26,368 nucleotides of DNA, taken from a virus. Positions 6,283-25,669 of the stretch are shown piece after piece. A program made the translations under genes and the position numbers. A model generated the notes under the pieces. That model worked only from the letters and a program-made list of their open reading frames with translations. It was not told the DNA's origin and ran no database searches. Each line of letters begins with the position of its first letter. Position 1 is the stretch's first letter. The stretch covers positions 1-26,368 of IMG/VR virus record IMGVR_UViG_3300045988_140494; one strand, written 5' to 3'.

Positions 6283-6618
6283 ATGGCATATGAATATACT
6301 CGTGAGAATAATCTTTACTACGATGTGGCATATCTGATTGAAAAAGAAAGATATGTGGATGCAGATGGTGTGGAACATGTTAACGAAACGGAGAAGGAAG
6401 TATTTTGTCGAGTTGGTGGAATTTATTCAAAAGAATTTAATGAAGCCTACCAGGCAGGCATACAGTTAGCGTATAAGCTTGTTATTCCTACTATTGATTA
6501 CAATGATGAAACGACAGTGAAATACAACGACAAAAAGTATGCGGTTTATCGTACATTCCCATCCGGAGATACGATTGAACTATATGTTCAACAGGATGCA
6601 GGAGAATGGAAACAGTAA
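6283..6618 (+). CDS. Head closure / head-tail adaptor protein
   Basis: 111 aa. The pattern VFCRVGGIYSKEFNEAYQAG...KYNDKKYAVYRT is typical of SPP1 gp16-like head closure proteins. Confidence 0.65.
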   Translation: MAYEYTRENNLYYDVAYLIEKERYVDADGVEHVNETEKEVFCRVGGIYSKEFNEAYQAGIQLAYKLVIPTIDYNDETTVKYNDKKYAVYRTFPSGDTIELYVQQDAGEWKQ

Positions 6619-6944
6619 GGCAACAGATTGTAGCTAAATTCACTGAACTTTTAGGTGAAGGACAATTTGTATACGGAAGTTTCAAATCAAAACCCCATAC
6701 CCCCTATGGGAATTATGCATTGGATTATACAAATAATTACTTTGCAGACAATAGAACGTATTGTAAGATTGGAACTTACATATATAGATTAGTGACTGAT
6801 CAAAAAGACTTTGAATTAGAAGCTAAAATCGAAGACATGTTTGATGAATTAGAAATACCATACCAAACCATCACAGATGAAGATATAAACACTCAAAAAG
6901 TACACTGTACAGAATGGACGGTGACATTAGTTGGCCGTCAATGA
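6606..6944 (+). CDS. Head-tail joining / tail completion protein, family not recognised
   Basis: 112-aa ORF in the conserved head-tail joining block, overlapping its neighbours in the manner of translational coupling. Confidence 0.5.
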   Translation: METVRQQIVAKFTELLGEGQFVYGSFKSKPHTPYGNYALDYTNNYFADNRTYCKIGTYIYRLVTDQKDFELEAKIEDMFDELEIPYQTITDEDINTQKVHCTEWTVTLVGRQ

Positions 6945-6957
6945 TGTATATTGCGAT

Positions 6958-7341
6958 ATGTCGCAACTTGGGCCTGAAATCAGAAAGATGATTCAAGAAT
7001 ATAAAGAGCATTCTTTGGCGCAGATTGATAGAGCAGTAGAAGAAACTACAAAAGATTCTAAAGACATTGTTAAAGCTAAGGCCAATGTAGACCATAGAAA
7101 CACGCGTAGAAAAGGCAAGTATAAAAGGTCTATAACATATAAGATAGAACGTGAATTAGCCCATACACGCGGTGTTATTTATGCGAGTGGCCACGAATAC
7201 TCATTAACTCATTTACTAGAAAACGGACATAATTTATGGAATTCTCCTAGACGTACACGTGCATTTAAGCATTGGAAAGATGGAGAAACAAACGCAATCA
7301 AGGAACTGCCAAGTTTAATCGAAAAATATTTGAAAGGATAA
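6958..7341 (+). CDS. HK97 gp10-like tail component
   Basis: LTHLLENGH motif resembles the gp10-family hLvEfGt signature. I prefer the ATG at 6958 over the TTG at 6931; the start is uncertain. Confidence 0.6.
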   Translation: MSQLGPEIRKMIQEYKEHSLAQIDRAVEETTKDSKDIVKAKANVDHRNTRRKGKYKRSITYKIERELAHTRGVIYASGHEYSLTHLLENGHNLWNSPRRTRAFKHWKDGETNAIKELPSLIEKYLKG

Positions 7342-13272: not shown

Positions 13273-14862
13273 ATGATTCATTTATTCTTTTCTAGAAAAA
13301 AAACAACATATGCACAAATGAAAGAACGTAATGGAGATGTGATTTTAAAACATTGTGTTAGTGCAAAAGCAGTGTTTGAAAGAAATTCTATTTGGTACGT
13401 AGAAATAGAATTCCCAAAAAGTGATTTGATGGGTATGGAAATCAGTGATGAATCCGTGTTTAAAGTGGACATAAATTTTGAAGAACCACAGTTATATAGA
13501 ATTGTGTATCCAAAATACAACAAACAAAGCGATACATATACATGCTATGCAACACATGTGTTCTTTGATTCTCAAAAAGAAGTGTTTGTGTTTGATGATC
13601 GTACTATGAGTGGTACGTGGCAAGATGCGATAAATACCGCAAATGATATTATCACAAATTCACGGCCCAATTATCCTTATAAAATATATGGACATGGAAA
13701 ATATGCAAATTATACAAATGTTAATGCAGAGGATGAAAAAATCGTTTATTTCCGAAATGTTCAAAATAGTGGGCATTGTTTGGATGTTCCAAACGCAAGT
13801 GAAGATGCATCTATACAATTACAGATGTATCAGAGAAACAGAACGTCTGCACAGACTTTCATGTTGAAAAAAGTAGGGTCAGACAAATATGGAGATATAT
13901 ATGGGATTTTATCTTTATGTTCATGTAGATGGCTTAAATTGGATTCAGGAAAGGTTGTGTTAGGAAGTCTATCTGAAAGTCCATCAGATAATTCTGAGAA
14001 ATGGTGGTTCATTAATAATGGTTCTAACTATGAAATCGCACCGTATATAAACATATATTATGGCATCTACACTAGTTCAACAAGTATCGGCAACGGAAAC
14101 AAAGTTATTGTTGCTGATAGAGGTACTGTTGAAGTTGGAAATGCGTGTAAATGGATGATTGAAGATGTGGATTCTACACAAACGGCATATTGGGTTCGAT
14201 ATAATCTGATTCAATGTTTGTTTGGCACAGAAGAAAATTCTATGATGAACAGATGGCCCGAATGTGAAAATAACAGATATGTTGCGATGTTTAACAATTA
14301 TGACTGCTACTTTGGAAATCCAGATTACTATGCTTCCAATTTGAAGCCAAATGGTTTCTTTATAAGTAATAAAGAAATGTCTGAATACACTAAGAAAAAA
14401 TCAATGGAAAATGTAGTTACAGGAATCATACCAAAAGCGTACAATGGACGGCTTCTACCAAATCACGAGATTGTCAAGGCTAGTAATTGGTATACAGATG
14501 AAATTCACAGAATTGATGTAAAAGAATATTCCGATATCAAATTGATTGCGGATGATTCACAAGCAAAGAAAATAACATTGGGCGTATTTACAAATGAAGT
14601 GAACCTAAGAAATTATCTTAGAATACAAGCTAAAAAATCTTTAGAAAAAGAGTTACAAGAACCCAATACGGAAACGTCTGTTAAATTTGAAGAATTATTT
14701 CCATACAATGTGCCGAATGCACAGGCGTTAAAAATAAATGATTCAATTTTTGTAGAGACTGATTTTGGAAAACGAGAAAGGTTTTATTTAAACAAATTGA
14801 CCTATAACTTGATCACAGAACGACCTGAAGATTTAGATCTTGTATTAGAAAGTGAGGTATAA
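13273..14862 (+). CDS. Tail-associated protein (Tal, minor structural protein) with an inserted ricin-type beta-trefoil-like lectin module
   Basis: Position after Dit. Residues ~156-300 (nt ~13738-14172) show three Q/K-x-W/F-type subrepeats (CLDV...QTFML, EKWWF, CKWMIED). Confidence 0.7.
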   Translation: MIHLFFSRKKTTYAQMKERNGDVILKHCVSAKAVFERNSIWYVEIEFPKSDLMGMEISDESVFKVDINFEEPQLYRIVYPKYNKQSDTYTCYATHVFFDSQKEVFVFDDRTMSGTWQDAINTANDIITNSRPNYPYKIYGHGKYANYTNVNAEDEKIVYFRNVQNSGHCLDVPNASEDASIQLQMYQRNRTSAQTFMLKKVGSDKYGDIYGILSLCSCRWLKLDSGKVVLGSLSESPSDNSEKWWFINNGSNYEIAPYINIYYGIYTSSTSIGNGNKVIVADRGTVEVGNACKWMIEDVDSTQTAYWVRYNLIQCLFGTEENSMMNRWPECENNRYVAMFNNYDCYFGNPDYYASNLKPNGFFISNKEMSEYTKKKSMENVVTGIIPKAYNGRLLPNHEIVKASNWYTDEIHRIDVKEYSDIKLIADDSQAKKITLGVFTNEVNLRNYLRIQAKKSLEKELQEPNTETSVKFEELFPYNVPNAQALKINDSIFVETDFGKRERFYLNKLTYNLITERPEDLDLVLESEV

Positions 14863-16808: not shown

Positions 16809-18737
16809 ATGGATGGATTGAAAGCAAGACTAAGCTTTGATGCAGTTGCTTATGATTATGATGATGAATATCTTACGATTGATACAGATACACATACTAT
16901 TAATATTAATAATGTATCTAGATTGTTTGGAGTGCAATATGATGGAAATTCTAAACTGATTAAATTTAGAATCAGAAACAAGTTATCTGAAATTCAAAAA
17001 ATGCAAGATTCAATTGTTTATATAAATTGGATTGATTCTAAGGGAGTTAAGGGCCAGTCAATTGCGATTAACAAAACAATTAATAATGATACTTGTGAAT
17101 TTGCATGGAAAGTACCATTTGATGCTTTGAAAAATTCAGGAGTATTACATTTTGCGATGAGCGCAGTTATGACTAAAAATAGTTCAAGTGTAATTGATCA
17201 AAGATGGTCTACACAAATTGCATCTGTAATTACACCTGATGGAATTTATATTAAATCTTATACACCTAGTAGTGAGGAAGAAGATAGAATTGCACAAATC
17301 TATAACGAGTTATCAAATATGATAAATAAGCAAAACGATAATTTGCAATCACAAGTTAATTCACTAAATGAAGGTTTAGGTAATAAAATTGATGTTGTCT
17401 GGAATGAAGGGACATATATTGAATATTCTACTGGTGCAGTTTATAAACTAGCTCAATATTCATCTACTAACTATATAAACGTATCAAATATTGATAAATT
17501 ATTTTATTTCGTAAAACAATATCAAGATGATGATTCTGGATATACTTTTATGGATAAAAATTGGAATTATGTTAGTGGCGGTAAAATTTATGGGCATGAA
17601 TACGGTGAACTCGATGTACCAGAAAATGCTGTTTACTTTGCTATTTCAACAAACAAACCATTGGAAAGCTATGTTAAAGTCTTAAATGTCAGAAATAATT
17701 TAATTAAAGAATGTAAACAGAAAATGCTAGTTACACAACAAGTACCAACAAATAATGGATATATTACCAATACTGGTAACATTTATAGTAATGATAATTA
17801 TTTGTACACAGATATTATTACTCTTAGGGCTGGCGAATCTATTAAAGTTGTATCATCTGACACTTCTGGTTCAAATATCTCAAGAATTGCTAAATATGGA
17901 GGTAAATTAGAATATGTGAGCACGATTTGTACTGGAACGCTTGCTAATACTGAATATACATATACGGCAACTGAAAAAGTTGAATATGTCCGTGCTTGTG
18001 TCTATGATAAATCTGAATACACAATTCAAACATTTACATACGCTATGCTTGGGAATGATATTAAATATACTTCTTTAGGGTGCTATAAAAGCATGGGTAT
18101 TGTTGGTGATAGTTTTGCAAGTGGTGAAACACGCTATGGAGATTCTTGGCATGATAATTATTGGCAGTCGTGGGGTCAAATCCTAAGTAGATTAGTTGGT
18201 AATCATTGTACTAACTTTTCAAGTGGTGGATTGACAACACGAAGTTGGTTAAAAGCTGAAACAGGTTTAACTTTGCTTAAAAATAGTGAATCATGTGATA
18301 TTTATATTTGTGCTTTAGGTATCAATGATACAGATGAATTAGGTACATCATATTTAGGGACTATTGATGATATGACTGATAACTATGAGAATAACCCAGA
18401 TACATTCTATGGTAATTATGGAAAAATTATCGGAAACATCTTAAACAAAAATCCTACAGCAACTATCGTATTATCAAGCATCGCTTTACATAGTAATAGC
18501 TATGATGTATTCTCAGATGCAATTAAAGAGATTGCAAATAAAGCTGGTGTTGTTTTCTTAGACACAAAAGATAACGATTTTTTTAATAGTCCAGTGTTTA
18601 ACAACTCTAGAAAAAACGGACATCCAAATAATCAAACATATGCTGGTATGGCTTATGCTTATGAAGAATTATTTAATAATGCATACCCAAATTATATTGA
18701 TTACTTACATGAAAAGTATCATGGATATGTAGAATAG
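16809..18737 (+). CDS. Tail fibre / receptor-binding protein with C-terminal SGNH (GDSL) esterase domain
   Basis: The C-terminal ~214 aa (nt ~18093-18737) carry SGNH blocks GDSFASG, SSGGLT, GINDT and NGHPN. Two similar beta-sandwich-like modules precede them. Confidence 0.8.
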   Translation: MDGLKARLSFDAVAYDYDDEYLTIDTDTHTININNVSRLFGVQYDGNSKLIKFRIRNKLSEIQKMQDSIVYINWIDSKGVKGQSIAINKTINNDTCEFAWKVPFDALKNSGVLHFAMSAVMTKNSSSVIDQRWSTQIASVITPDGIYIKSYTPSSEEEDRIAQIYNELSNMINKQNDNLQSQVNSLNEGLGNKIDVVWNEGTYIEYSTGAVYKLAQYSSTNYINVSNIDKLFYFVKQYQDDDSGYTFMDKNWNYVSGGKIYGHEYGELDVPENAVYFAISTNKPLESYVKVLNVRNNLIKECKQKMLVTQQVPTNNGYITNTGNIYSNDNYLYTDIITLRAGESIKVVSSDTSGSNISRIAKYGGKLEYVSTICTGTLANTEYTYTATEKVEYVRACVYDKSEYTIQTFTYAMLGNDIKYTSLGCYKSMGIVGDSFASGETRYGDSWHDNYWQSWGQILSRLVGNHCTNFSSGGLTTRSWLKAETGLTLLKNSESCDIYICALGINDTDELGTSYLGTIDDMTDNYENNPDTFYGNYGKIIGNILNKNPTATIVLSSIALHSNSYDVFSDAIKEIANKAGVVFLDTKDNDFFNSPVFNNSRKNGHPNNQTYAGMAYAYEELFNNAYPNYIDYLHEKYHGYVE

Positions 18738-18804: not shown

Positions 18805-19098
18805 ATGAATGGAGAATATCTTAGTGTTATTATTTCTGCATGCATGCTTGTAATTGCATTTATTACGTATAATCGTGGCACACGCAAGATGGATGGAGAG
18901 CAAATATCCAATATGGCATTTTTGAAGAATGAATTGGAACATATTAAATCGGATTTAGGTGATATTAAAGATTCAATTTCAGAAATAAAAAAAGGAAGCA
19001 ATTCAATGGAAGTGGAGCTTTCAGAACTAAAACAACAAATAAAAACTTTGTTTAATCGTGTAGAAGCGTTGGAGGAACGTAATAAAAATGGATATTAA
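18805..19098 (+). CDS. Small membrane protein, N-terminal TM plus coiled coil (BhlA/UviB-like holin-like architecture)
   Basis: TM segment YLSVIISACMLVIAFITY followed by a heptad-rich charged tail. SD GAAAGGAAA upstream. Confidence 0.5.
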   Translation: MNGEYLSVIISACMLVIAFITYNRGTRKMDGEQISNMAFLKNELEHIKSDLGDIKDSISEIKKGSNSMEVELSELKQQIKTLFNRVEALEERNKNGY

Positions 19099-19321
19099 AG
19101 ATGCAAACAAGAAACTTCAGAATGTAGAAGAAAAAGTAGATAATATTTATGGTTTTTGTTCAAAATTAATTGATCGAAACTATAAAACAAGTAGAACGAT
19201 TATTACAGTATTGGTTTTAGTGATTATTGTTCTTTATTCTACTATTGTTTGTTGTGGTTATTGGAAAGATGATCATGTGAATAATTGTTCTTGCGAAGCT
19301 AATTCAAGCCAACGAATTTAA
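19088..19321 (+). CDS. Small membrane protein, coiled coil plus TM (XhlA-like architecture)
   Basis: N-terminal coiled coil followed by TM segment TIITVLVLVIIVLYSTIVCCGY. Overlaps the previous gene by 11 nt. Confidence 0.45.
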   Translation: MDIKDANKKLQNVEEKVDNIYGFCSKLIDRNYKTSRTIITVLVLVIIVLYSTIVCCGYWKDDHVNNCSCEANSSQRI

Positions 19322-19329
19322 TTAAGGCG

Positions 19330-19563
19330 GTGGTTTATATTAACAAAGCTAACAGATTAAAAGAAATACGTCCTAATGATGCATTAATACTTATCAAATC
19401 TGTTGGATTAAGAAAGAAATATGAACAGGTTTTGATTATGAGATACGTATATGACATGTCATGTACCGAAATTGCAGATGCATTACATATGGAAGTACAA
19501 ACCATAAGGAACAGAGTATGTAAAGCAAGAAAAATGTTCGATAAATATGTGAGCAACCTATAA
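19330..19563 (+). CDS. Sigma-70 region-4-like / YlxM-like HTH DNA-binding protein
   Basis: The pattern KKYEQVLIMRYVYDMSCTEIADALHMEVQTIRNRVCKARKMF matches region-4-type HTH. GTG start has a poor SD, so the start is uncertain. Confidence 0.6.
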   Translation: MVYINKANRLKEIRPNDALILIKSVGLRKKYEQVLIMRYVYDMSCTEIADALHMEVQTIRNRVCKARKMFDKYVSNL

Positions 19564-19582
19564 TGGTTGCTCATTTTATTTT
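19551..19582 (+). terminator. Intrinsic terminator after the HTH gene
   Basis: GAGCAACC (19551-19558) pairs with GGTTGCTC (19565-19572), followed by ATTTTATTTT. The stop codon sits in the loop. Confidence 0.75.
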
Positions 19583-19609
19583 GGGTATTTTATGAGTATT
19601 ATTCGAGTA

Positions 19610-19638
19610 TTAAATTATTTATTACGTAACCATATAAT
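19610..19638 (+). promoter_or_regulatory. Candidate promoter of the accessory cassette
   Basis: TTAAAT, 17-nt spacer, then a perfect TATAAT (19633-19638). The extended reading is CATATAAT. Confidence 0.4.
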
Positions 19639-19661
19639 TAAAGCGTAAAGAGGTGGTTAAA

Positions 19662-20102
19662 ATGTATAACAATTATAATCCAGCACAAGCACGAATTGAC
19701 AGTTTGATGCAGCAAAGACAAATGATAGATCAACAAATTCAGCAAGTACAACAGTATGCAAATATTCCACCTATCAACATTAATAATCAGATTACACCAC
19801 AACAACAAGGAAGTTTTGATTTTAATGGAAAATGGGTGAATAACGAACAGGAAGCTAGAAACTTTGCCAATGCAAACCTACCAACAATTTTATTTGATAA
19901 TAATAAATCTATTTTTTATATGAAATCTTTAGATGGATCATTTAAAAAATTTAAATTTGAAGAAATCACGGAAGATCCTTCTAACAGTATAGAAAATCGT
20001 GTAAATGGAATCGAAAAGAAATTAGATGATTTGATATGTGCATTAAGCAAACCACCAAAACAAGCTAATGAGCAACCAAAGAAAGGAGCACAAACAAAAT
20101 GA
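19662..20102 (+). CDS. Gln-rich N-terminus plus small globular C-terminal domain, unknown function
   Basis: SD AAAGAGGTGG lies 5 nt upstream of the ATG at 19662; the ORF-track GTG at 19653 falls inside the SD. The N-terminal ~50 aa are rich in Q. Confidence 0.7.
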   Translation: MYNNYNPAQARIDSLMQQRQMIDQQIQQVQQYANIPPININNQITPQQQGSFDFNGKWVNNEQEARNFANANLPTILFDNNKSIFYMKSLDGSFKKFKFEEITEDPSNSIENRVNGIEKKLDDLICALSKPPKQANEQPKKGAQTK

Positions 20103-20341
20103 ATCCTTTAAAAAGTATTATGGGAAATATGAATCCAATGAATATGATGAATATGGGAAATCCACAACAAATGTTAATGAATATGCTATCACAGAGAAAT
20201 CCACAAGCATTTCAACAATTTCAAATGCTTATGAATAGTGGCCAAAATCCACAAATGATTTTAAATCAGATGATGGGTAATTTAAATCCACAACAAAAGC
20301 AACAACTGCAACAAATGGCAAAACAGTTTGGAATCAGGTAA
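20099..20341 (+). CDS. 80-aa Met/Asn/Gln-rich protein built of NPQ/NPM repeats
   Basis: Start overlaps the upstream stop (ATGA). Five NP(Q/M)-initiated helical-looking repeats. No TM segment and no signal peptide. Confidence 0.7.
   Translation: MNPLKSIMGNMNPMNMMNMGNPQQMLMNMLSQRNPQAFQQFQMLMNSGQNPQMILNQMMGNLNPQQKQQLQQMAKQFGIR
20158..20293 (+). repeat. Four in-frame copies of AAATCCACAA (20158, 20197, 20245, 20284) underlying the NPQ repeats
   Basis: Read directly from the sequence. Spacings are 39, 48 and 39 nt. Confidence 0.9.
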
Positions 20342-20382
20342 CAACGGCTAAACCGTTATTATAGAAAGAAAGGAGAACATAT

Positions 20383-21006
20383 ATGATGGAAAACGGAATG
20401 GGAATTCAACCAACTTACAACTTAGCCGAAAGAAATGACGGCTTTGGAGACGGAGGAGGTTGGTGGATTTGGATCTTGCTAATCTTCGTGTTATTTGGAT
20501 ATGGAGGCTATGGCAATGGAAACCCAGTAAACGATTCTTTATTAAATGAAGAATTCATTAAACGAGATATTTTTAACACAAACACAAATGTATCTCAAAC
20601 AGGTTGTCAAACCCAACGTGATGTATTAGAAAGTCGCTATACGAATCAGTTAGGACTTCAAAGTTTGCAGGCTCAGCAACAAGAATGTTGCTGCAACACT
20701 CAACGAGCAATTGACAATGTAAATGCTCAAAGTTTCAAAAATACTTGTGACATTACAACAGCAATTCATTCAGAAGGTGAAGCAACACGTGCATTGATCA
20801 ATGCAAACACTATGCAAGAATTACGTGATCGTTTAGCTGATCGTGATCGTGAATTATTGACGGCTAATTTCCAATTAAGTCAACAGGCACAATCAGCAAA
20901 CATCATTAGTACTTTGCAACCAACACCAAAACCAGCTTACATTACATGTTCACCATATTACGCTTATAACAACGGATGTGGATGTAATGGCTACAACAAC
21001 TTATAA
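20383..21006 (+). CDS. Membrane-anchored Cys-rich coiled protein, unknown function
   Basis: SD AGGAGA upstream. Gly/Trp-flanked TM segment GGGWWIWILLIFVLFGYGGYG. Contains ECCCN, a Q-rich helical region and the C-terminal GCGCNGYNNL. Confidence 0.75.
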   Translation: MMENGMGIQPTYNLAERNDGFGDGGGWWIWILLIFVLFGYGGYGNGNPVNDSLLNEEFIKRDIFNTNTNVSQTGCQTQRDVLESRYTNQLGLQSLQAQQQECCCNTQRAIDNVNAQSFKNTCDITTAIHSEGEATRALINANTMQELRDRLADRDRELLTANFQLSQQAQSANIISTLQPTPKPAYITCSPYYAYNNGCGCNGYNNL

Positions 21007-21047
21007 TCTAGCACATATGTGATTAGGCAATTGCCTTTGGATTTAAC

Positions 21048-21075
21048 GGGATAGTCGAAAGGCTATCCCTGTTTT
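21048..21075 (+). terminator. Hairpin plus short T tract between the third and fourth cassette genes (attenuator or partial terminator)
   Basis: GGGATAG (21048-21054) pairs with CTATCCC (21063-21069), followed by TGTTTT. The palindrome AGGCAATTGCCT lies at 21025-21036. Confidence 0.5.
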
Positions 21076-21093
21076 AATAGGAGGATAAAAGAA

Positions 21094-21513
21094 ATGATTA
21101 ATAGTATTGCTACGGCTGTTCAGACAGTCGATAATTCAAATAATGTATTGTTTCCTACAGATCGTGTAAGAAGCAAATCATGCCAGTGTCCATGTAAAGG
21201 ATGGTTGGCACATGATCTAGGAAGTGGATTGTTTACACTAACAAAGCCAGGTATCTATGAAGTAACTTATACTGCGGATATTACGAGTGCAGCGGCAGGA
21301 CAAGCTTCTTTAGTGCTTGAACTAAATGGAGAAGTAATTGGAGGAACACAATCTATTTATACTGTTGCAACTGCAAGTGCGTATGGAAATGTAAATGGAG
21401 ACACTCTAATTCAAGTTCCATGTGGCGCATCTTATACAATTGCATTAGCAAATGACAGTGGTTTAGATCTATCTGTTCAAAATGCAAACATTATCATTAA
21501 AAAGATTGCGTAG
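21094..21513 (+). CDS. BclA C-terminal-domain-like (C1q/TNF-like jelly roll) protein with no collagen-like region
   Basis: GIYEVTYTADITS...LVLELNGEVIGGT...ANIIIKKIA parallels, from my memory, the Bacillus anthracis BclA C-terminal domain (GFYKITVIANT...IQVNGVPVPGT...ASIIIEKVA). Strong SD GGAGGA upstream. Confidence 0.7.
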   Translation: MINSIATAVQTVDNSNNVLFPTDRVRSKSCQCPCKGWLAHDLGSGLFTLTKPGIYEVTYTADITSAAAGQASLVLELNGEVIGGTQSIYTVATASAYGNVNGDTLIQVPCGASYTIALANDSGLDLSVQNANIIIKKIA

Positions 21514-21522
21514 GTGAAATAT

Positions 21523-21996
21523 ATGCATAAAGCAATGGAAGTTAATGAGAAGATAATGCATGAGTCAGTAAACATGTTAGAGAAATATGGATATGCAGAA
21601 TCTTATTTCCATGCATTATCTCAAGCTTTAGATAATATCAAAGACATTGAAACTATAGAAGCAATGAGAAATAAATATCAAATTGAGATAGGAAAAGATG
21701 GAGTTTCAACTGTAGCACGATTAAAAGAAGATAATGATGGATATAATATTCATGATCCAGAAACAGAAGATATTGTTTATAAGCTTGTAGAACATTTGAA
21801 AAAATATAAAGCGTTCAAAGAAGAATATAAGCGTACAAAAGGTGAGATGGATTTGGAAAAGTCTCATCGTGAATTAGATAAGACTATGAAATGTATGCAA
21901 CAAATCGTAACTATGATTCATGGATGCGTTGATTCAGATGAAGAAAAAACAATGATTAAGACACATATACGAGACATGTTTAATATGTATCAATAA
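21523..21996 (+). CDS. Helical protein, unknown function
   Basis: AGGTGA lies 5 nt upstream of the ATG at 21523; the ORF-track GTG at 21514 abuts the previous stop. Charged, helical-looking composition. Confidence 0.65.
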   Translation: MHKAMEVNEKIMHESVNMLEKYGYAESYFHALSQALDNIKDIETIEAMRNKYQIEIGKDGVSTVARLKEDNDGYNIHDPETEDIVYKLVEHLKKYKAFKEEYKRTKGEMDLEKSHRELDKTMKCMQQIVTMIHGCVDSDEEKTMIKTHIRDMFNMYQ

Positions 21997-22022
21997 GGCC
22001 GTTAAATACGGTCTTTTATTTT
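21995..22022 (+). terminator. Intrinsic terminator closing the accessory cassette
   Basis: AAGGCCGT (21995-22002) pairs with ACGGTCTT (22008-22015) with one G-U pair, followed by TTATTTT. Confidence 0.6.
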
Positions 22023-22036
22023 GTACAGTGTACAAA
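22018..22036. promoter_or_regulatory. 19-bp element ATTTTGTACAGTGTACAAA (palindrome 22020-22036), copy 2, upstream of the holin
   Basis: Identical to 88-106. TACTAT lies 9 nt downstream. TTGTAC, 19-nt spacer, TACTAT is a possible activator-dependent promoter. Confidence 0.55.
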
Positions 22037-22075
22037 CGATTTAAATACTATCATTAGGATAGGAGGTATTTGAAA

Positions 22076-22300
22076 ATGAAAAAATATAGTAAAGAATGGT
22101 GGATTCAATATGGCTATTACGCAAGTATCAGAGCATTAAAGACAATTGCTCAAACTGCTGTTGGTGTTATTGGAGCATCTGCATTATTGGAAGCCGTTGA
22201 TTGGCGAGTTGTAATTTCGTCAGCGCTTTTGTCAGGCGTTGTTTCGCTATTGACTAGTATTGGTGGATTACCTGAAATTAGTGTACCGGAGGATGAATAA
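22076..22300 (+). CDS. Holin (LL-H / phiLC3-type)
   Basis: IRALKTIAQTAVGVI...VDWRVV...LLTSIGGLPE is typical of LL-H-type holins. AGGAGG lies 9 nt upstream of the ATG at 22076. Confidence 0.8.
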   Translation: MKKYSKEWWIQYGYYASIRALKTIAQTAVGVIGASALLEAVDWRVVISSALLSGVVSLLTSIGGLPEISVPEDE

Positions 22301-22302
22301 AA

Positions 22303-22416
22303 ATGAATGATGAAGAAAAAGTAGTAGATTATGAGAATCTATCAGAAGAAGCAAAAGAAGAATTAAGCAATGGCAAGGAAGAAGGTGTAGATGAAGAATG
22401 TCATATTCCGGATTAG
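22303..22416 (+). CDS. 37-aa acidic peptide between holin and endolysin
   Basis: My own translation is MNDEEKVVDYENLSEEAKEELSNGKEEGVDEECHIPD. It starts 3 nt after the holin stop and overlaps the endolysin start by 19 nt. It is below the ORF-track length cutoff. Confidence 0.35.
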   Translation: MNDEEKVVDYENLSEEAKEELSNGKEEGVDEECHIPD

Positions 22417-23474
22417 CAACATATTGTAACAGAACATCACAACATTATGATGGTCGTTTTGGATATAAGGTTTGTAAAATCACTCCACACTACATGGCTG
22501 CGGCATGGAGTGGTAAACAATGTGCAGATTATTTTGCACGAAACACTCGTCAAGCATCTTCCAATTATTGTATTGGAATTAATGGAGACATTGCATGCAG
22601 TGTTGATGAAGAAAATGCTGCATGGACAAGTTCAAATTGGTTGAATGATTCTCAATCAATTACAATTGAATGTGGAAACATTAATAACGCAACTGGAGAA
22701 ATGACGCAAGCTACTTGGGATAGCTTGGTGAATCTATGTGTTGATATTTGTAAACGATATGGATTTAGATTGAACTATACAGGAAATTCTAGCGGATCAT
22801 TGACTATGCACAAAATGTTTGCGGCTACATCATGCCCTGGAGCATGGTTGGAAGCACGTATGCCACAATTGGCTAATGAAGTAAATGCAAAGTTAGATGG
22901 AAAGGTTGAAACACCAAAACCTACAACTCCAAGTGGAGAAAAATATTCAGTTAATTTACCTATCTGTACAAACACATTGAGTGTGAATTGCTACGGAACT
23001 TCTACAGTTAAAAAAGGTGATTGGTCAGGTGTCATTGGTAGAGTAATTAAAGGAACAAAATATCCATATCGTGTTGATCGTAATGGAGTAGCGATTGGAT
23101 GGACTAATGATGCTGGTATTGATACAGACCCCCATACACCAGTAGGCGCCACACAGTCTAGCGCAGAAGCTATCGACCAAATTTTGCATGAAGGTAGCTA
23201 TGTTACATCTGTACATATGAAAATTGGTAATCAAGGCTTGAAAAAGATTGGTGATGATTTATGTTGCTATCTATCAAAACTGGGTGGTTGGTTCCCAATT
23301 CGTATGGTAGATAAAGTACCTAATTCAGACGGATATAATGACAATGTATTGCATACCACAAATGCAGTAGTCTATGTATCTAGAATCAGAGTCGATGCAG
23401 TGAATGTTCAAAAGAATATTGTCAAGATTGGTGGCGTTTGGGTTGACCCAACACCATTAACAGAAATTGAATAA
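22398..23474 (+). CDS. Endolysin: N-acetylmuramoyl-L-alanine amidase (Amidase_2/PGRP fold) plus C-terminal SH3-like wall-binding region
   Basis: Motifs ITPHYMAA, ASSNYCIGINGDI...ENAAW, SQSITIEC and MHKMF..TSCPG align with PlyG/PlyL-type amidases. Position directly after the holin. Confidence 0.9.
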   Translation: MSYSGLATYCNRTSQHYDGRFGYKVCKITPHYMAAAWSGKQCADYFARNTRQASSNYCIGINGDIACSVDEENAAWTSSNWLNDSQSITIECGNINNATGEMTQATWDSLVNLCVDICKRYGFRLNYTGNSSGSLTMHKMFAATSCPGAWLEARMPQLANEVNAKLDGKVETPKPTTPSGEKYSVNLPICTNTLSVNCYGTSTVKKGDWSGVIGRVIKGTKYPYRVDRNGVAIGWTNDAGIDTDPHTPVGATQSSAEAIDQILHEGSYVTSVHMKIGNQGLKKIGDDLCCYLSKLGGWFPIRMVDKVPNSDGYNDNVLHTTNAVVYVSRIRVDAVNVQKNIVKIGGVWVDPTPLTEIE

Positions 23475-25249: not shown

Positions 25250-25287
25250 AGGCCTTGTTAATGCAACAAGGCCTTTACTTTATATTT
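25250..25287 (+). terminator. Strong intrinsic terminator
   Basis: AGGCCTTGTT (25250-25259) pairs with AACAAGGCCT (25265-25274), followed by a T-rich tail. Confidence 0.8.
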
Positions 25288-25300
25288 GGGAGATATAATC

Positions 25301-25669
25301 ATGAATAAATCAAAAAAGATGTTATATAAAATAACAGATGAATATATAGAAACGTTTGGATTGGATGAATCATATAAAGATAAAACTATTGCTTTGTATG
25401 ATGATAGAATAAATCATATAGAAAGACACAGAGAAGATTTTAATGATCCTTTGTTTTTAGATATTGTTTTCAGAGATTTATCATTGATTGTTTCTAATCC
25501 AGATTTTATATCGGAGGACAAAAAGAATAACAGCTTACAAATTGTCAAGAAAATGGAAGACAATGTACTAGTTGCAGTTAGAATAAGTTCAGGGCCAATA
25601 TTAAAAATTAAAACGATTTATCCAATAAATGAAACTAAATACAATAAATTAAAAACAAATAAATTATAA
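25301..25669 (+). CDS. PBECR-like (phage Barnase-EndoU-ColicinE5/D-RelE-like) putative nuclease
   Basis: Pattern ...IALYDDRINHIERHREDF...IVSNPDFISEDKKNNSLQIVKK...VLVAVRIS...IKTIYPINETKYNKL matches my recollection of this family. GGGAG lies 8 nt upstream of the ATG at 25301; the ORF-track TTG at 25286 is unlikely. Confidence 0.55.
   Translation: MNKSKKMLYKITDEYIETFGLDESYKDKTIALYDDRINHIERHREDFNDPLFLDIVFRDLSLIVSNPDFISEDKKNNSLQIVKKMEDNVLVAVRISSGPILKIKTIYPINETKYNKLKTNKL

Follow-up and report, generated by a model that had tools for sequence, protein, structure and literature searches.

A mobile multigene cassette with a candidate HTH regulator, its own promoter and a structured leader RNA in phages of anaerobic Bacillota

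Phages carry accessory genes known as morons, independent transcription units placed between conserved late genes and defined in HK97/lambda-like phages. Other described systems resemble parts of the locus reported here: the lytic cassettes of the Bacillus subtilis elements PBSX and SPbeta (XepA or YomS, XhlA, XhlB and XlyA; BhlA and BhlB), the exosporium blocks in which BclA is found with ExsY/CotY (Bacillus cereus group) or BclA1-3 with CdeC/CdeM (Clostridioides difficile), and transcription attenuators and riboswitch platforms. The locus is a gene cassette at positions 19330-22025 of a 26,368-nucleotide stretch of viral DNA (IMG/VR record IMGVR_UViG_3300045988_140494), the whole of which is called the window. 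It encodes a stand-alone helix-turn-helix (HTH) protein followed by a Q-rich protein, a protein with repeated NPQ motifs, a Cys-rich membrane protein, a BclA_C-like protein and a fast-evolving last protein. Our tentative reading is that this region, probably together with the two membrane-protein genes just before it (18805-19321), is an autonomous, regulated operon that is exchanged as a unit and produces a non-enzymatic, membrane-anchored assembly late in vegetative infected cells. The phages that carry it infect anaerobic Bacillota (Erysipelotrichia, Lachnospiraceae and Clostridium).

Related loci were gathered from phage isolates, IMG/VR contigs, metagenomes and genomes by tblastn and homologue searches, and their gene order was read by iterative profile searches over the open reading frames (ORFs) recovered; individual loci and proteins are cited below by L and P numbers. 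An earlier reading of this DNA, made from the sequence alone, had asked whether the five genes after the HTH travel together. Every complete locus, among about 150 examined, had the same order, Q-rich, NPQ, Cys-rich transmembrane (TM), BclA_C-like and the putatively helical last protein, this last gene being usual and not universal. The synteny persists even where identity has fallen to about 25-30%, as in Butyrivibrio virus Ceridwen and in Dulem viruses 33 and 35. No DNA near-identical to the window was found in the phage collection. Some lineages have in addition one or two small coiled-coil proteins or a protein of 175-197 amino acids (aa), and others have exchanged the last gene for one encoding a DUF7841 protein, or the BclA_C protein for an unrelated 119-aa Cys-containing beta protein. 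For this 119-aa protein, found in Clostridium perfringens phages and in L153, the idea of a divergent BclA_C was not supported (hhalign probability 0.3%). DUF7841 is mentioned in no paper found in our literature search.

The cassette was found in four neighbourhoods in sipho- and myoviruses, counting a position between holin and endolysin and one after the endolysin as the same. In the window, L005, L089 and L090 it is preceded by a tail fibre, two membrane coiled-coil proteins and the HTH and followed by the holin. The L060 group has it between a Phage_holin_4_1 holin plus HTH and an Amidase_2 lysin, and it comes after the endolysin in Ceridwen, Dulem virus 33 and the myovirus L154 (which has baseplate J and sheath initiator genes). 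A minor capsid gene (Phage_min_cap2 or Mu-F-like) and the scaffold gene flank it in L004, L092 (from a Coprococcus comes genome) and Dulem virus 35. Finally, in the C. perfringens phages HMD-PC1 and CPD1 it is located in the early region, between an antirepressor or KilA gene and those for Gam, recombinase and ThyX. These varied positions indicate that the cassette is an insert and not a part of the lysis module, as the sequence-only reading had proposed from its own terminators and promoter. No convincing direct or inverted repeats marking a site-specific insertion were found at its flanks.

The membrane coiled-coil genes and the HTH gene travel with the cassette in L004, L092 and L154 and are therefore better counted in the module than among the lysis genes. 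In L092 and L004, both within the head module, a protein with the architecture of the window 97-aa membrane protein (18805-19098) precedes the HTH and the cassette. In L154, where the cassette follows the lysin, the upstream coiled-coil proteins have the TM helix closer to the C-terminus, and a 111-aa protein at the equivalent relative position has an architecture like that of the window 77-aa membrane protein (19088-19321). About 50 relatives were reached through the 97-aa protein on contigs extending far enough, and the cassette was present in all but two of them, one an internal-deletion variant and the other a rearranged contig.

Some shortened forms were also seen. The deletion in the L147 locus (6284-6963) begins in the 3' part of the HTH gene and ends in the 5' part of the BclA_C gene. 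In P0254 the Q-rich protein is joined in frame to the C-terminal half of BclA_C, and P0128, of 221 aa, aligns with most of the Q-rich sequence and gives a BclA_C match in Pfam. It is unclear whether these deletions are natural variants or assembly artefacts. The one in L147, variant or possible artefact, suggests that the module is dispensable for genome maintenance. As for insertions, Dulem virus 33 has an opposite-strand endonuclease gene inside the cassette (L002:4401-4952), between the NPQ-type and the membrane-protein genes. Immediately 5' of the Q-rich gene, Ceridwen (L001:4002-4379) and Dulem virus 33 (L002:3325-3705) carry a gene for a protein of about 125 aa with similar Cys/His/Asp C-termini (...CP(D/E)CYT...H...D.W...YW), without counterpart in the window cassette.

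Like morons, the cassette has its own promoter and flanking terminators, is inserted between conserved genes at varied positions and is dispensable; the window copy has its own terminators and a TATAAT promoter, and the four insertion contexts all lie between conserved phage genes. Unlike morons, which consist of one or two genes, it has five to eight, with a probable dedicated HTH regulator and an internal RNA attenuator, isolates of C. perfringens phages also carry it in their early region, and its layout suggests late lytic expression. Most likely, it is a moron-type operon that is larger and more elaborately controlled than the classical ones.

The host of the window phage could be assigned. 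RefSeq members of the 90%-identity clusters that include the window BclA_C and membrane proteins come from Holdemanella biformis (WP_302129786.1 and WP_302129787.1), where the RefSeq name is 'BclA C-terminal domain-containing protein', and a 97%-identical locus is present in a metagenome-assembled genome labelled Solobacterium sp., likewise of the Erysipelotrichaceae. Ceridwen, isolated on Butyrivibrio fibrisolvens, a species not known to form spores, has a related cassette. H. biformis DSM3989 has been classified as a Former-Spore-Former and is not ethanol resistant (Browne et al. 2021, PMC8340488, Table S3). The sequence-only reading had proposed, as a working hypothesis, that this locus is a lysogenic-conversion moron, which would be expressed from the prophage and remodel the cell or spore surface with Cys-rich and BclA_C coat-like blocks. 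The spore coat and exosporium part of that proposal is rejected because the host species no longer forms spores, and the presence of cassettes in Ceridwen and in the early region of C. perfringens phages also speaks against it; the module works in vegetative cells of non-sporulating hosts. A mother-cell sigma-E-like reading of the -10 is thus left without host context.

The cassette can also be compared with the exosporium blocks. Both have a BclA_C-type TNF-like domain, a Cys-rich partner and no signal peptides, so that self-assembly in the cytoplasm is conceivable, as for the exosporium proteins assembled in the mother cell. Unlike them, the cassette protein has no collagen-like region, its Cys-rich partner is a membrane protein, and the cassette is found in phages of non-sporulating hosts and in early regions. 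The wider idea of lysogenic conversion can still point to a BclA_C domain above the Pfam cut-off, to chromosomal Cys-rich/BclA_C-like fusions (for example in Negativibacillus massiliensis) among the nearest non-cassette relatives, to the cassette's own promoter and terminators, and to Dulem virus 33, where the cassette lies between endolysin and integrase, the classic moron position. In addition to the host and the missing collagen-like repeats, two regulatory features described below weigh against it: the putative activator shares a transcript with late genes, and a promoter lacking a -35 makes constitutive prophage expression unlikely. Hence we rank it below the late vegetative operon and regard it as very unlikely.

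The HTH gene (19330-19563, + strand) encodes 77 aa and is a probable activator of the cassette promoter. Its resemblance to sigma-70 region 4, pointed out earlier, was confirmed by Pfam (Sigma70_r4_2, 40.6 bits with a cut-off of 25.7, E 2e-10). There is no sigma region 2 in so short a protein, and the NCBIfam matches to ECF sigma factors cover just the C-terminal 45-55 profile positions and are far below the cut-offs. The HTH of the window and the one directly 5' of the cassette in L154 share 34% identity (E 4e-11), and HTH genes are also located 5' of the cassette in L004, L092 and the L060 group. In the window the gene starts 8 bp after the preceding one and has a terminator at its end, leaving no room for a promoter before it, so that the HTH would be made together with the late tail genes. 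This arrangement points to late lytic rather than prophage expression of the cassette.

A different gene was found directly 5' of the cassette in two loci (L058:2744-3316 and L093:6580-7137). It codes for a membrane protein matching AgrB in its N-terminal half (PF04647, E 4.6e-11 and 1.5e-5), with a His-x7-Cys pair spaced like the catalytic residues of AgrB and a C-terminal part that is HTH-like by eye and has no Pfam match. It looks like a membrane-tethered, possibly peptide-processing regulator. Genes for polytopic membrane proteins lie just 5' of it (L058:2101-2742 and L093:5956-6510).

A scan of the region gave 10 intrinsic-terminator-like sites against 2.3 +/- 1.5 in shuffles and recovered the two terminators and the internal hairpin that had been claimed (19549-19574, 21995-22015 and 21048-21069). 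The tail-gene stretch is closed by an intrinsic terminator at 19549-19584 (+ strand; 10-bp stem with 5 GC pairs, then TTTTATTTT) and the cassette by another at 21995-22025 (+ strand; 8-bp stem, then TTATTTTG). After the first of them, the TATAAT hexamer of the proposed promoter is present at 19633-19638 (+ strand) with TTAAAT at the -35 position, and it went unreported by a sigma-70 scan because this is not a good -35. Three direct repeats with an 11-bp period, GGGTAT, GAGTAT and GAGTAT (19583-19610, + strand), are the putative activator sites. The triple pattern occurs once in the 26-kb window (0.05 expected by chance). Among 31 sequence variants of the intergenic region TATAAT was invariant and the repeats almost so, and the 22-bp spacer between repeats and -10 was the most polymorphic part.

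The same layout is found elsewhere with other sequences. The Waltera-associated relative L090 has three (G/T)AGTAT repeats with the spacing of the window, the L060 group two TTGACATTNAT repeats 11 bp apart together with a different HTH, the L058/L069 group two GATACT repeats, and other lineages have different 11-bp-phased repeats at the equivalent place. Most lineages have an intrinsic terminator and then a -10 5' of the Q-rich gene, the exceptions being L001 and L002, where another gene abuts. Promoters that depend on an activator usually look like this, with a perfect -10, no -35 and helically phased direct repeats right next to where the -35 would be, and the adjacent HTH is, by its position, the obvious candidate for an activator acting through the repeats.

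The second regulatory element is a structured RNA leader of about 75 nucleotides (21004-21077, + strand) that starts at the stop codon of the membrane-protein gene (TAA, 21004-21006). The attenuator-like hairpin seen earlier turned out to be the terminator of this larger conserved leader. Three lineages, with only 75-80% identity between their membrane proteins, share its blocks AATCTAG, ATTAGG, CCTTTGGATT and AAAGG unchanged, and in all three the stop codon abuts or falls within AATCTAG. One fold (OFF) consists of a three-way junction plus the terminator. Its outer stem pairs 21005-21011 with 21037-21043, and the two inner stems pair 21012-21014 with 21019-21021 (covariation CAC:GUG, CUC:GAG and UCGC:GCGA) and 21025-21028 with 21033-21036 (AGGC:GCCU and AGGUUU:AAACCU). 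The terminator pairs 21048-21056 with 21061-21069, followed by a U-run, and its arms vary between lineages. In this fold 91.6% of the cells are paired, against 32-52% with slid partners, and 5 pairs have changed on both sides. In the other fold (ON) an antiterminator forms between CCUUUGGAUU (21034-21043) and AGUCGAAAGG (21053-21062), the latter being the terminator 5' arm and loop; it was 100% paired in 15 of 15 sequences although the terminator arms differ. The two predicted folds are mutually exclusive, and both fit all sequences.

With a covariance model the element was found at the equivalent intergenic position of Dulem virus 35 (33 bits, E about 2e-4 to 1e-3), and weak matches fell exactly at that position in L099, L100, L154 and L094. 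No Rfam family matched the leader or the other intergenic regions at E<=1, apart from one chance snoRNA match on the opposite strand elsewhere. Like attenuators and riboswitch platforms, the leader has mutually exclusive folds, with one strand shared between an upstream partner and the terminator 5' arm, and a compact three-way junction as its sensing part. Unlike them, it has its start at the stop codon that ends a 207-aa gene and not at a leader peptide, and it lacks an Rfam match. We infer that read-through into the BclA_C gene would be coupled to translation of the membrane protein; alternatively, the signal could be a protein or a small ligand stabilising the three-way junction.

All the ORFs that had been claimed for the cassette and the two upstream membrane genes are present on the + strand (18805-19098, 19088-19321, 19330-19563, 19653/19662-20102, 20099-20341, 20383-21006, 21094-21513 and 21514/21523-21996), and the compositions described for three of the products (Q-rich, Met/Gln-rich with NPQ, Cys-rich with a single TM) hold on residue counts and motif alignments. 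The Q-rich protein (146 aa, 19662-20102, + strand) most likely starts at ATG 19662, behind the ribosome-binding site AGAGGTGG. Its AlphaFold2 model (mean pLDDT 73) has a coiled-coil helix (residues 7-32), a disordered Q/P linker, a small alpha/beta domain (56-98, pLDDT about 90) and a C-terminal helix (110-129). Foldseek found no PDB fold match for this model at E<0.1, and its BFVD matches were only gut-phage proteins, unannotated or auto-named and labelled Siphoviridae, Podoviridae or Myoviridae sp. The next gene (20099-20341, + strand) overlaps the stop of the Q-rich gene (ATGA) and encodes the Met/Gln/Asn-rich protein of 80 aa with the repeated NPQ motifs (17 Q, 16 M and 13 N of 80), a family that could be aligned over 15 lineages. 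It gave no significant match in Pfam or PDB. A relationship to the Met-rich STI1/ubiquilin domain was considered and is unsupported (RAD23 only, at E 8.3). A profile search of the Q-rich, NPQ and BclA_C families against PDB sequences found nothing significant either, the top match being 'Gogy' 7bqq with the NPQ family (E 0.004).

The bitopic membrane protein (207 aa, 20383-21006, + strand) has an acidic Gly-rich N-terminus, one TM helix (residues 27-39 in a low-confidence model) and long helices. The motifs CCCxTQ, KNTC, TCSPY and GCGC are conserved, and it has 8 Cys, in the CCC and GCGC motifs. The AlphaFold2 monomer was unusable (pLDDT 47.7). Searching public metagenomes, 5103 homologues were found at E<=1e-3, mostly on phage-sized human-gut contigs, with no Pfam domain or informative name among the 120 listed of the 5103. 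The acidic N-terminal tail is nearly devoid of Lys and Arg, and a cytoplasmic C-terminal domain, on the same side as the partners without signal peptide, is mildly favoured.

The following protein (139 aa, 21094-21513, + strand) is a stand-alone BclA_C (TNF/C1q-like) protein with conserved Cys in SCQCPC and VPCG. The identity suggested by the sequence-only reading passed narrowly in Pfam (BclA_C, PF18573, 40.8 bits with a cut-off of 38, E 2.4e-10, residues 39-139), and the protein also matched phrog_20016 (E 4e-18); the close homologue in L005 has a precomputed BclA_C match and the divergent L154 protein has none. There are no collagen-like GXX repeats N-terminal to the domain. We found 307 relatives as 50%-identity clusters, and the best 150 of the 307 are nearly all stand-alone proteins of 130-150 aa. 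Three others (P0282, P0313 and P0370) are chromosomal proteins of 225-363 aa with an extremely Cys-rich N-terminal half (e.g. CCNPCCCNPCCNPC) and a BclA_C-like C-terminal domain, 37-42% identical to the window protein. The P0282 cluster is named in N. massiliensis, and members of the P0282 and P0313 clusters are on contigs as long as 683 kb. They could be true proteins of the spore surface, and the phage protein could have its cellular relatives in them. Because of these Cys-rich fusions, the pairing of a Cys-rich moiety with a BclA_C-type domain can be said to recur.

The final cassette gene (21523-21996, + strand) abuts the BclA_C gene and encodes a fast-evolving protein, most likely starting at ATG 21523 since its homologues have 157 aa, as it then would have. 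A word search gave 6 homologues, too few for a useful alignment, and an iterative search found equivalents at the matching position in L003, L004, L060, L092, L094-L096 and L099. The overlap of the Q-rich and NPQ genes and the abutting BclA_C and last genes suggest two translationally coupled pairs. None of the cassette products has a signal peptide or an enzymatic domain. No enzymatic, defence or virion family was matched in Pfam, PHROGs, NCBIfam or PADLOC, which gave no function; only the HTH and BclA_C could be assigned.

A TNF/C1q-like protein inside a phage genome could also be part of the particle, since trimers of this fold are known as receptor-binding tips of viral fibres. The trimer would then be an auxiliary adhesin or decoration on heads or tails and the other proteins its assembly factors. 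Most lineages do place the cassette inside the structural late operon or at its end, following the tail fibre or a Gp10_C baseplate protein or lying between minor capsid and scaffold, and the BclA_C profile weakly matched a phage short tail fibre in PDB (E 0.22). On the other hand, one core member is a Cys-rich integral membrane protein, the cassette is unchanged between sipho- and myoviruses and has BFVD relatives labelled Podoviridae sp., it is among early genes in the C. perfringens phages, it has its own regulator, promoter and attenuator, and the PHROG structural categories were unmatched. Furthermore, the BclA_C protein was no more variable between related phages than its neighbours, unlike typical receptor-binding proteins. 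The literature search found no virion proteomics for the cassette-bearing C. perfringens phages. On balance, a virion role is unlikely and ranks below the membrane-anchored assembly.

A mobile, accessory and dispensable module with a membrane-anchored core protein might instead serve exclusion or anti-phage defence, blocking superinfection at the membrane. The cassette is present both in integrase-bearing prophages and in C. perfringens phage isolates, and exclusion genes occur in both prophages and phage isolates. Of the 5027 models in PADLOC-DB 2.0, none matched beyond coiled-coil noise (low-scoring LmuB and JetA matches, E>=1e-4), effector domains, nuclease and NTPase among them, are absent, a set of five to eight proteins that are all purely structural would be unusual for an exclusion system, and expression is seemingly tied to late genes. 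We therefore give this explanation, too, a lower rank than the favoured one and little credence.

What remains to be placed is the site of action, for which the PBSX and SPbeta lytic cassettes offer the nearest comparison. Like them, the locus has membrane coiled-coil proteins of XhlA/BhlA architecture and a non-enzymatic, beta-rich oligomeric protein without signal peptide beside holin and endolysin. Unlike them, it has no detectable sequence similarity to XepA or YomS, and it also occurs at a distance from lysis genes. The BhlA/XhlA-like label given earlier to the products of 18805-19321 held for the architecture and not for the families. The 97-aa protein (18805-19098, + strand) has an N-terminal TM helix and a coiled coil with weak PHROG matches to hemolysin/XhlA-type families (E 1.4e-4 and 8e-3), and neither XhlA (PF10779) nor BhlA is among the 25 of its 54 Pfam matches listed at E<=1; its L004 counterpart matches XhlA at E 0.019, below the cut-off. 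The 77-aa protein (19088-19321, + strand), with an N-terminal coiled coil, one TM helix and a Cys-containing tail in the ORF list, has neither of them among its three Pfam matches at E<=1.

The late vegetative operon that we favour would work as follows. The HTH, being encoded last before the terminator of the tail genes, would be made together with them, bind the three phased repeats (19583-19610) and recruit RNA polymerase to the promoter that lacks a -35. The transcript would then provide a coiled-coil oligomerising protein, its coupled Met/Gln-rich helper and the Cys-rich single-pass membrane protein, and the leader at the stop codon of the latter would meter read-through into the distal genes, those for the BclA_C protein and its partner. 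A ribosome terminating at the TAA would sit on the 5' strand of the outer stem, leaving UUGGAUU available and favouring the antiterminator. The products might finally assemble a membrane-anchored structural complex around the time of lysis and act on the envelope as a lysis, egress or exclusion accessory. This placement is suggested because the cassette often adjoins holin or endolysin genes (the window lineage, the L060 group, Ceridwen, Dulem virus 33 and L154) and because it is associated with XhlA/BhlA-like membrane coiled-coil proteins; it is the weakest step.

Several observations weigh against this scheme. Neither homology nor experiment links any cassette protein to lysis, egress or the envelope, and several lineages carry the cassette at a great distance from the lysis genes, either inside the head module or among early genes. 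The L069-type lineage keeps the repeats without an adjacent HTH gene. The terminator is far more stable than the antiterminator (-15.6 against -7.5 kcal/mol), so any switching would have to be kinetic, and the covariation of the leader was drawn from three well-sampled lineages only. A bolder version, in which exosporium-like Cys-rich and TNF-like self-assembly takes place on the vegetative membrane under a dedicated HTH activator and an uncatalogued RNA attenuator that reads translation of the membrane subunit, would be a widespread but undescribed phage system; we think this rather unlikely. If true, it would open a new class of cellular structures built by phages, and the attenuator would be a new motif among cis-regulatory RNAs.

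The window itself is the late half of a temperate siphovirus genome, with 28-38% G+C throughout and no compositional break at the cassette. The genes 5' of it are, in order, those for HNH endonuclease, large terminase, portal, capsid, tape measure, tail proteins and tail fibre. On the 3' side are an r1t-type holin (22070-22300, + strand; Pfam Phage_r1t_holin, E 6.7e-12), an Amidase_2 endolysin (22398-23474, + strand; E 6.6e-17), a tyrosine integrase and a PBECR3 nuclease. Between holin and endolysin, and overlapping the start of the latter, is a very acidic 37-aa ORF (22303-22416) without any family match. The nuclease gene (127 aa, PBECR3/PBECR2, Barnase-EndoU-ColicinE5/D-RelE-like, 25286-25669) is just past the integrase, at the prophage end, and could be toxin or defence cargo. 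Two tail genes have domains that suggest that a host surface glycan is recognised and deacylated, a ricin-type beta-trefoil lectin domain in a tail protein (13273-14862) and a C-terminal GDSL/SGNH esterase domain in the 642-aa distal tail protein or tail fibre (16809-18737).

The module, its operator repeats and the leader RNA were not found in the libraries or literature searched, and the only functional annotation among the cassette members is the HTH regulator. For the study of spores, the case indicates that a BclA_C domain or a Cys-rich or Q-rich composition is poor grounds for inferring a spore function. For regulation, the locus offers two tractable parts, an HTH with phased repeats and a leader of about 75 nucleotides with alternative folds that matches no Rfam family. 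The module has remained intact across head, tail, lysis and early regions of sipho- and myoviruses and must therefore confer a general advantage on phages of gut Firmicutes. Identifying this advantage would give a role to a recurrent block of the 'dark matter' of the gut virome.

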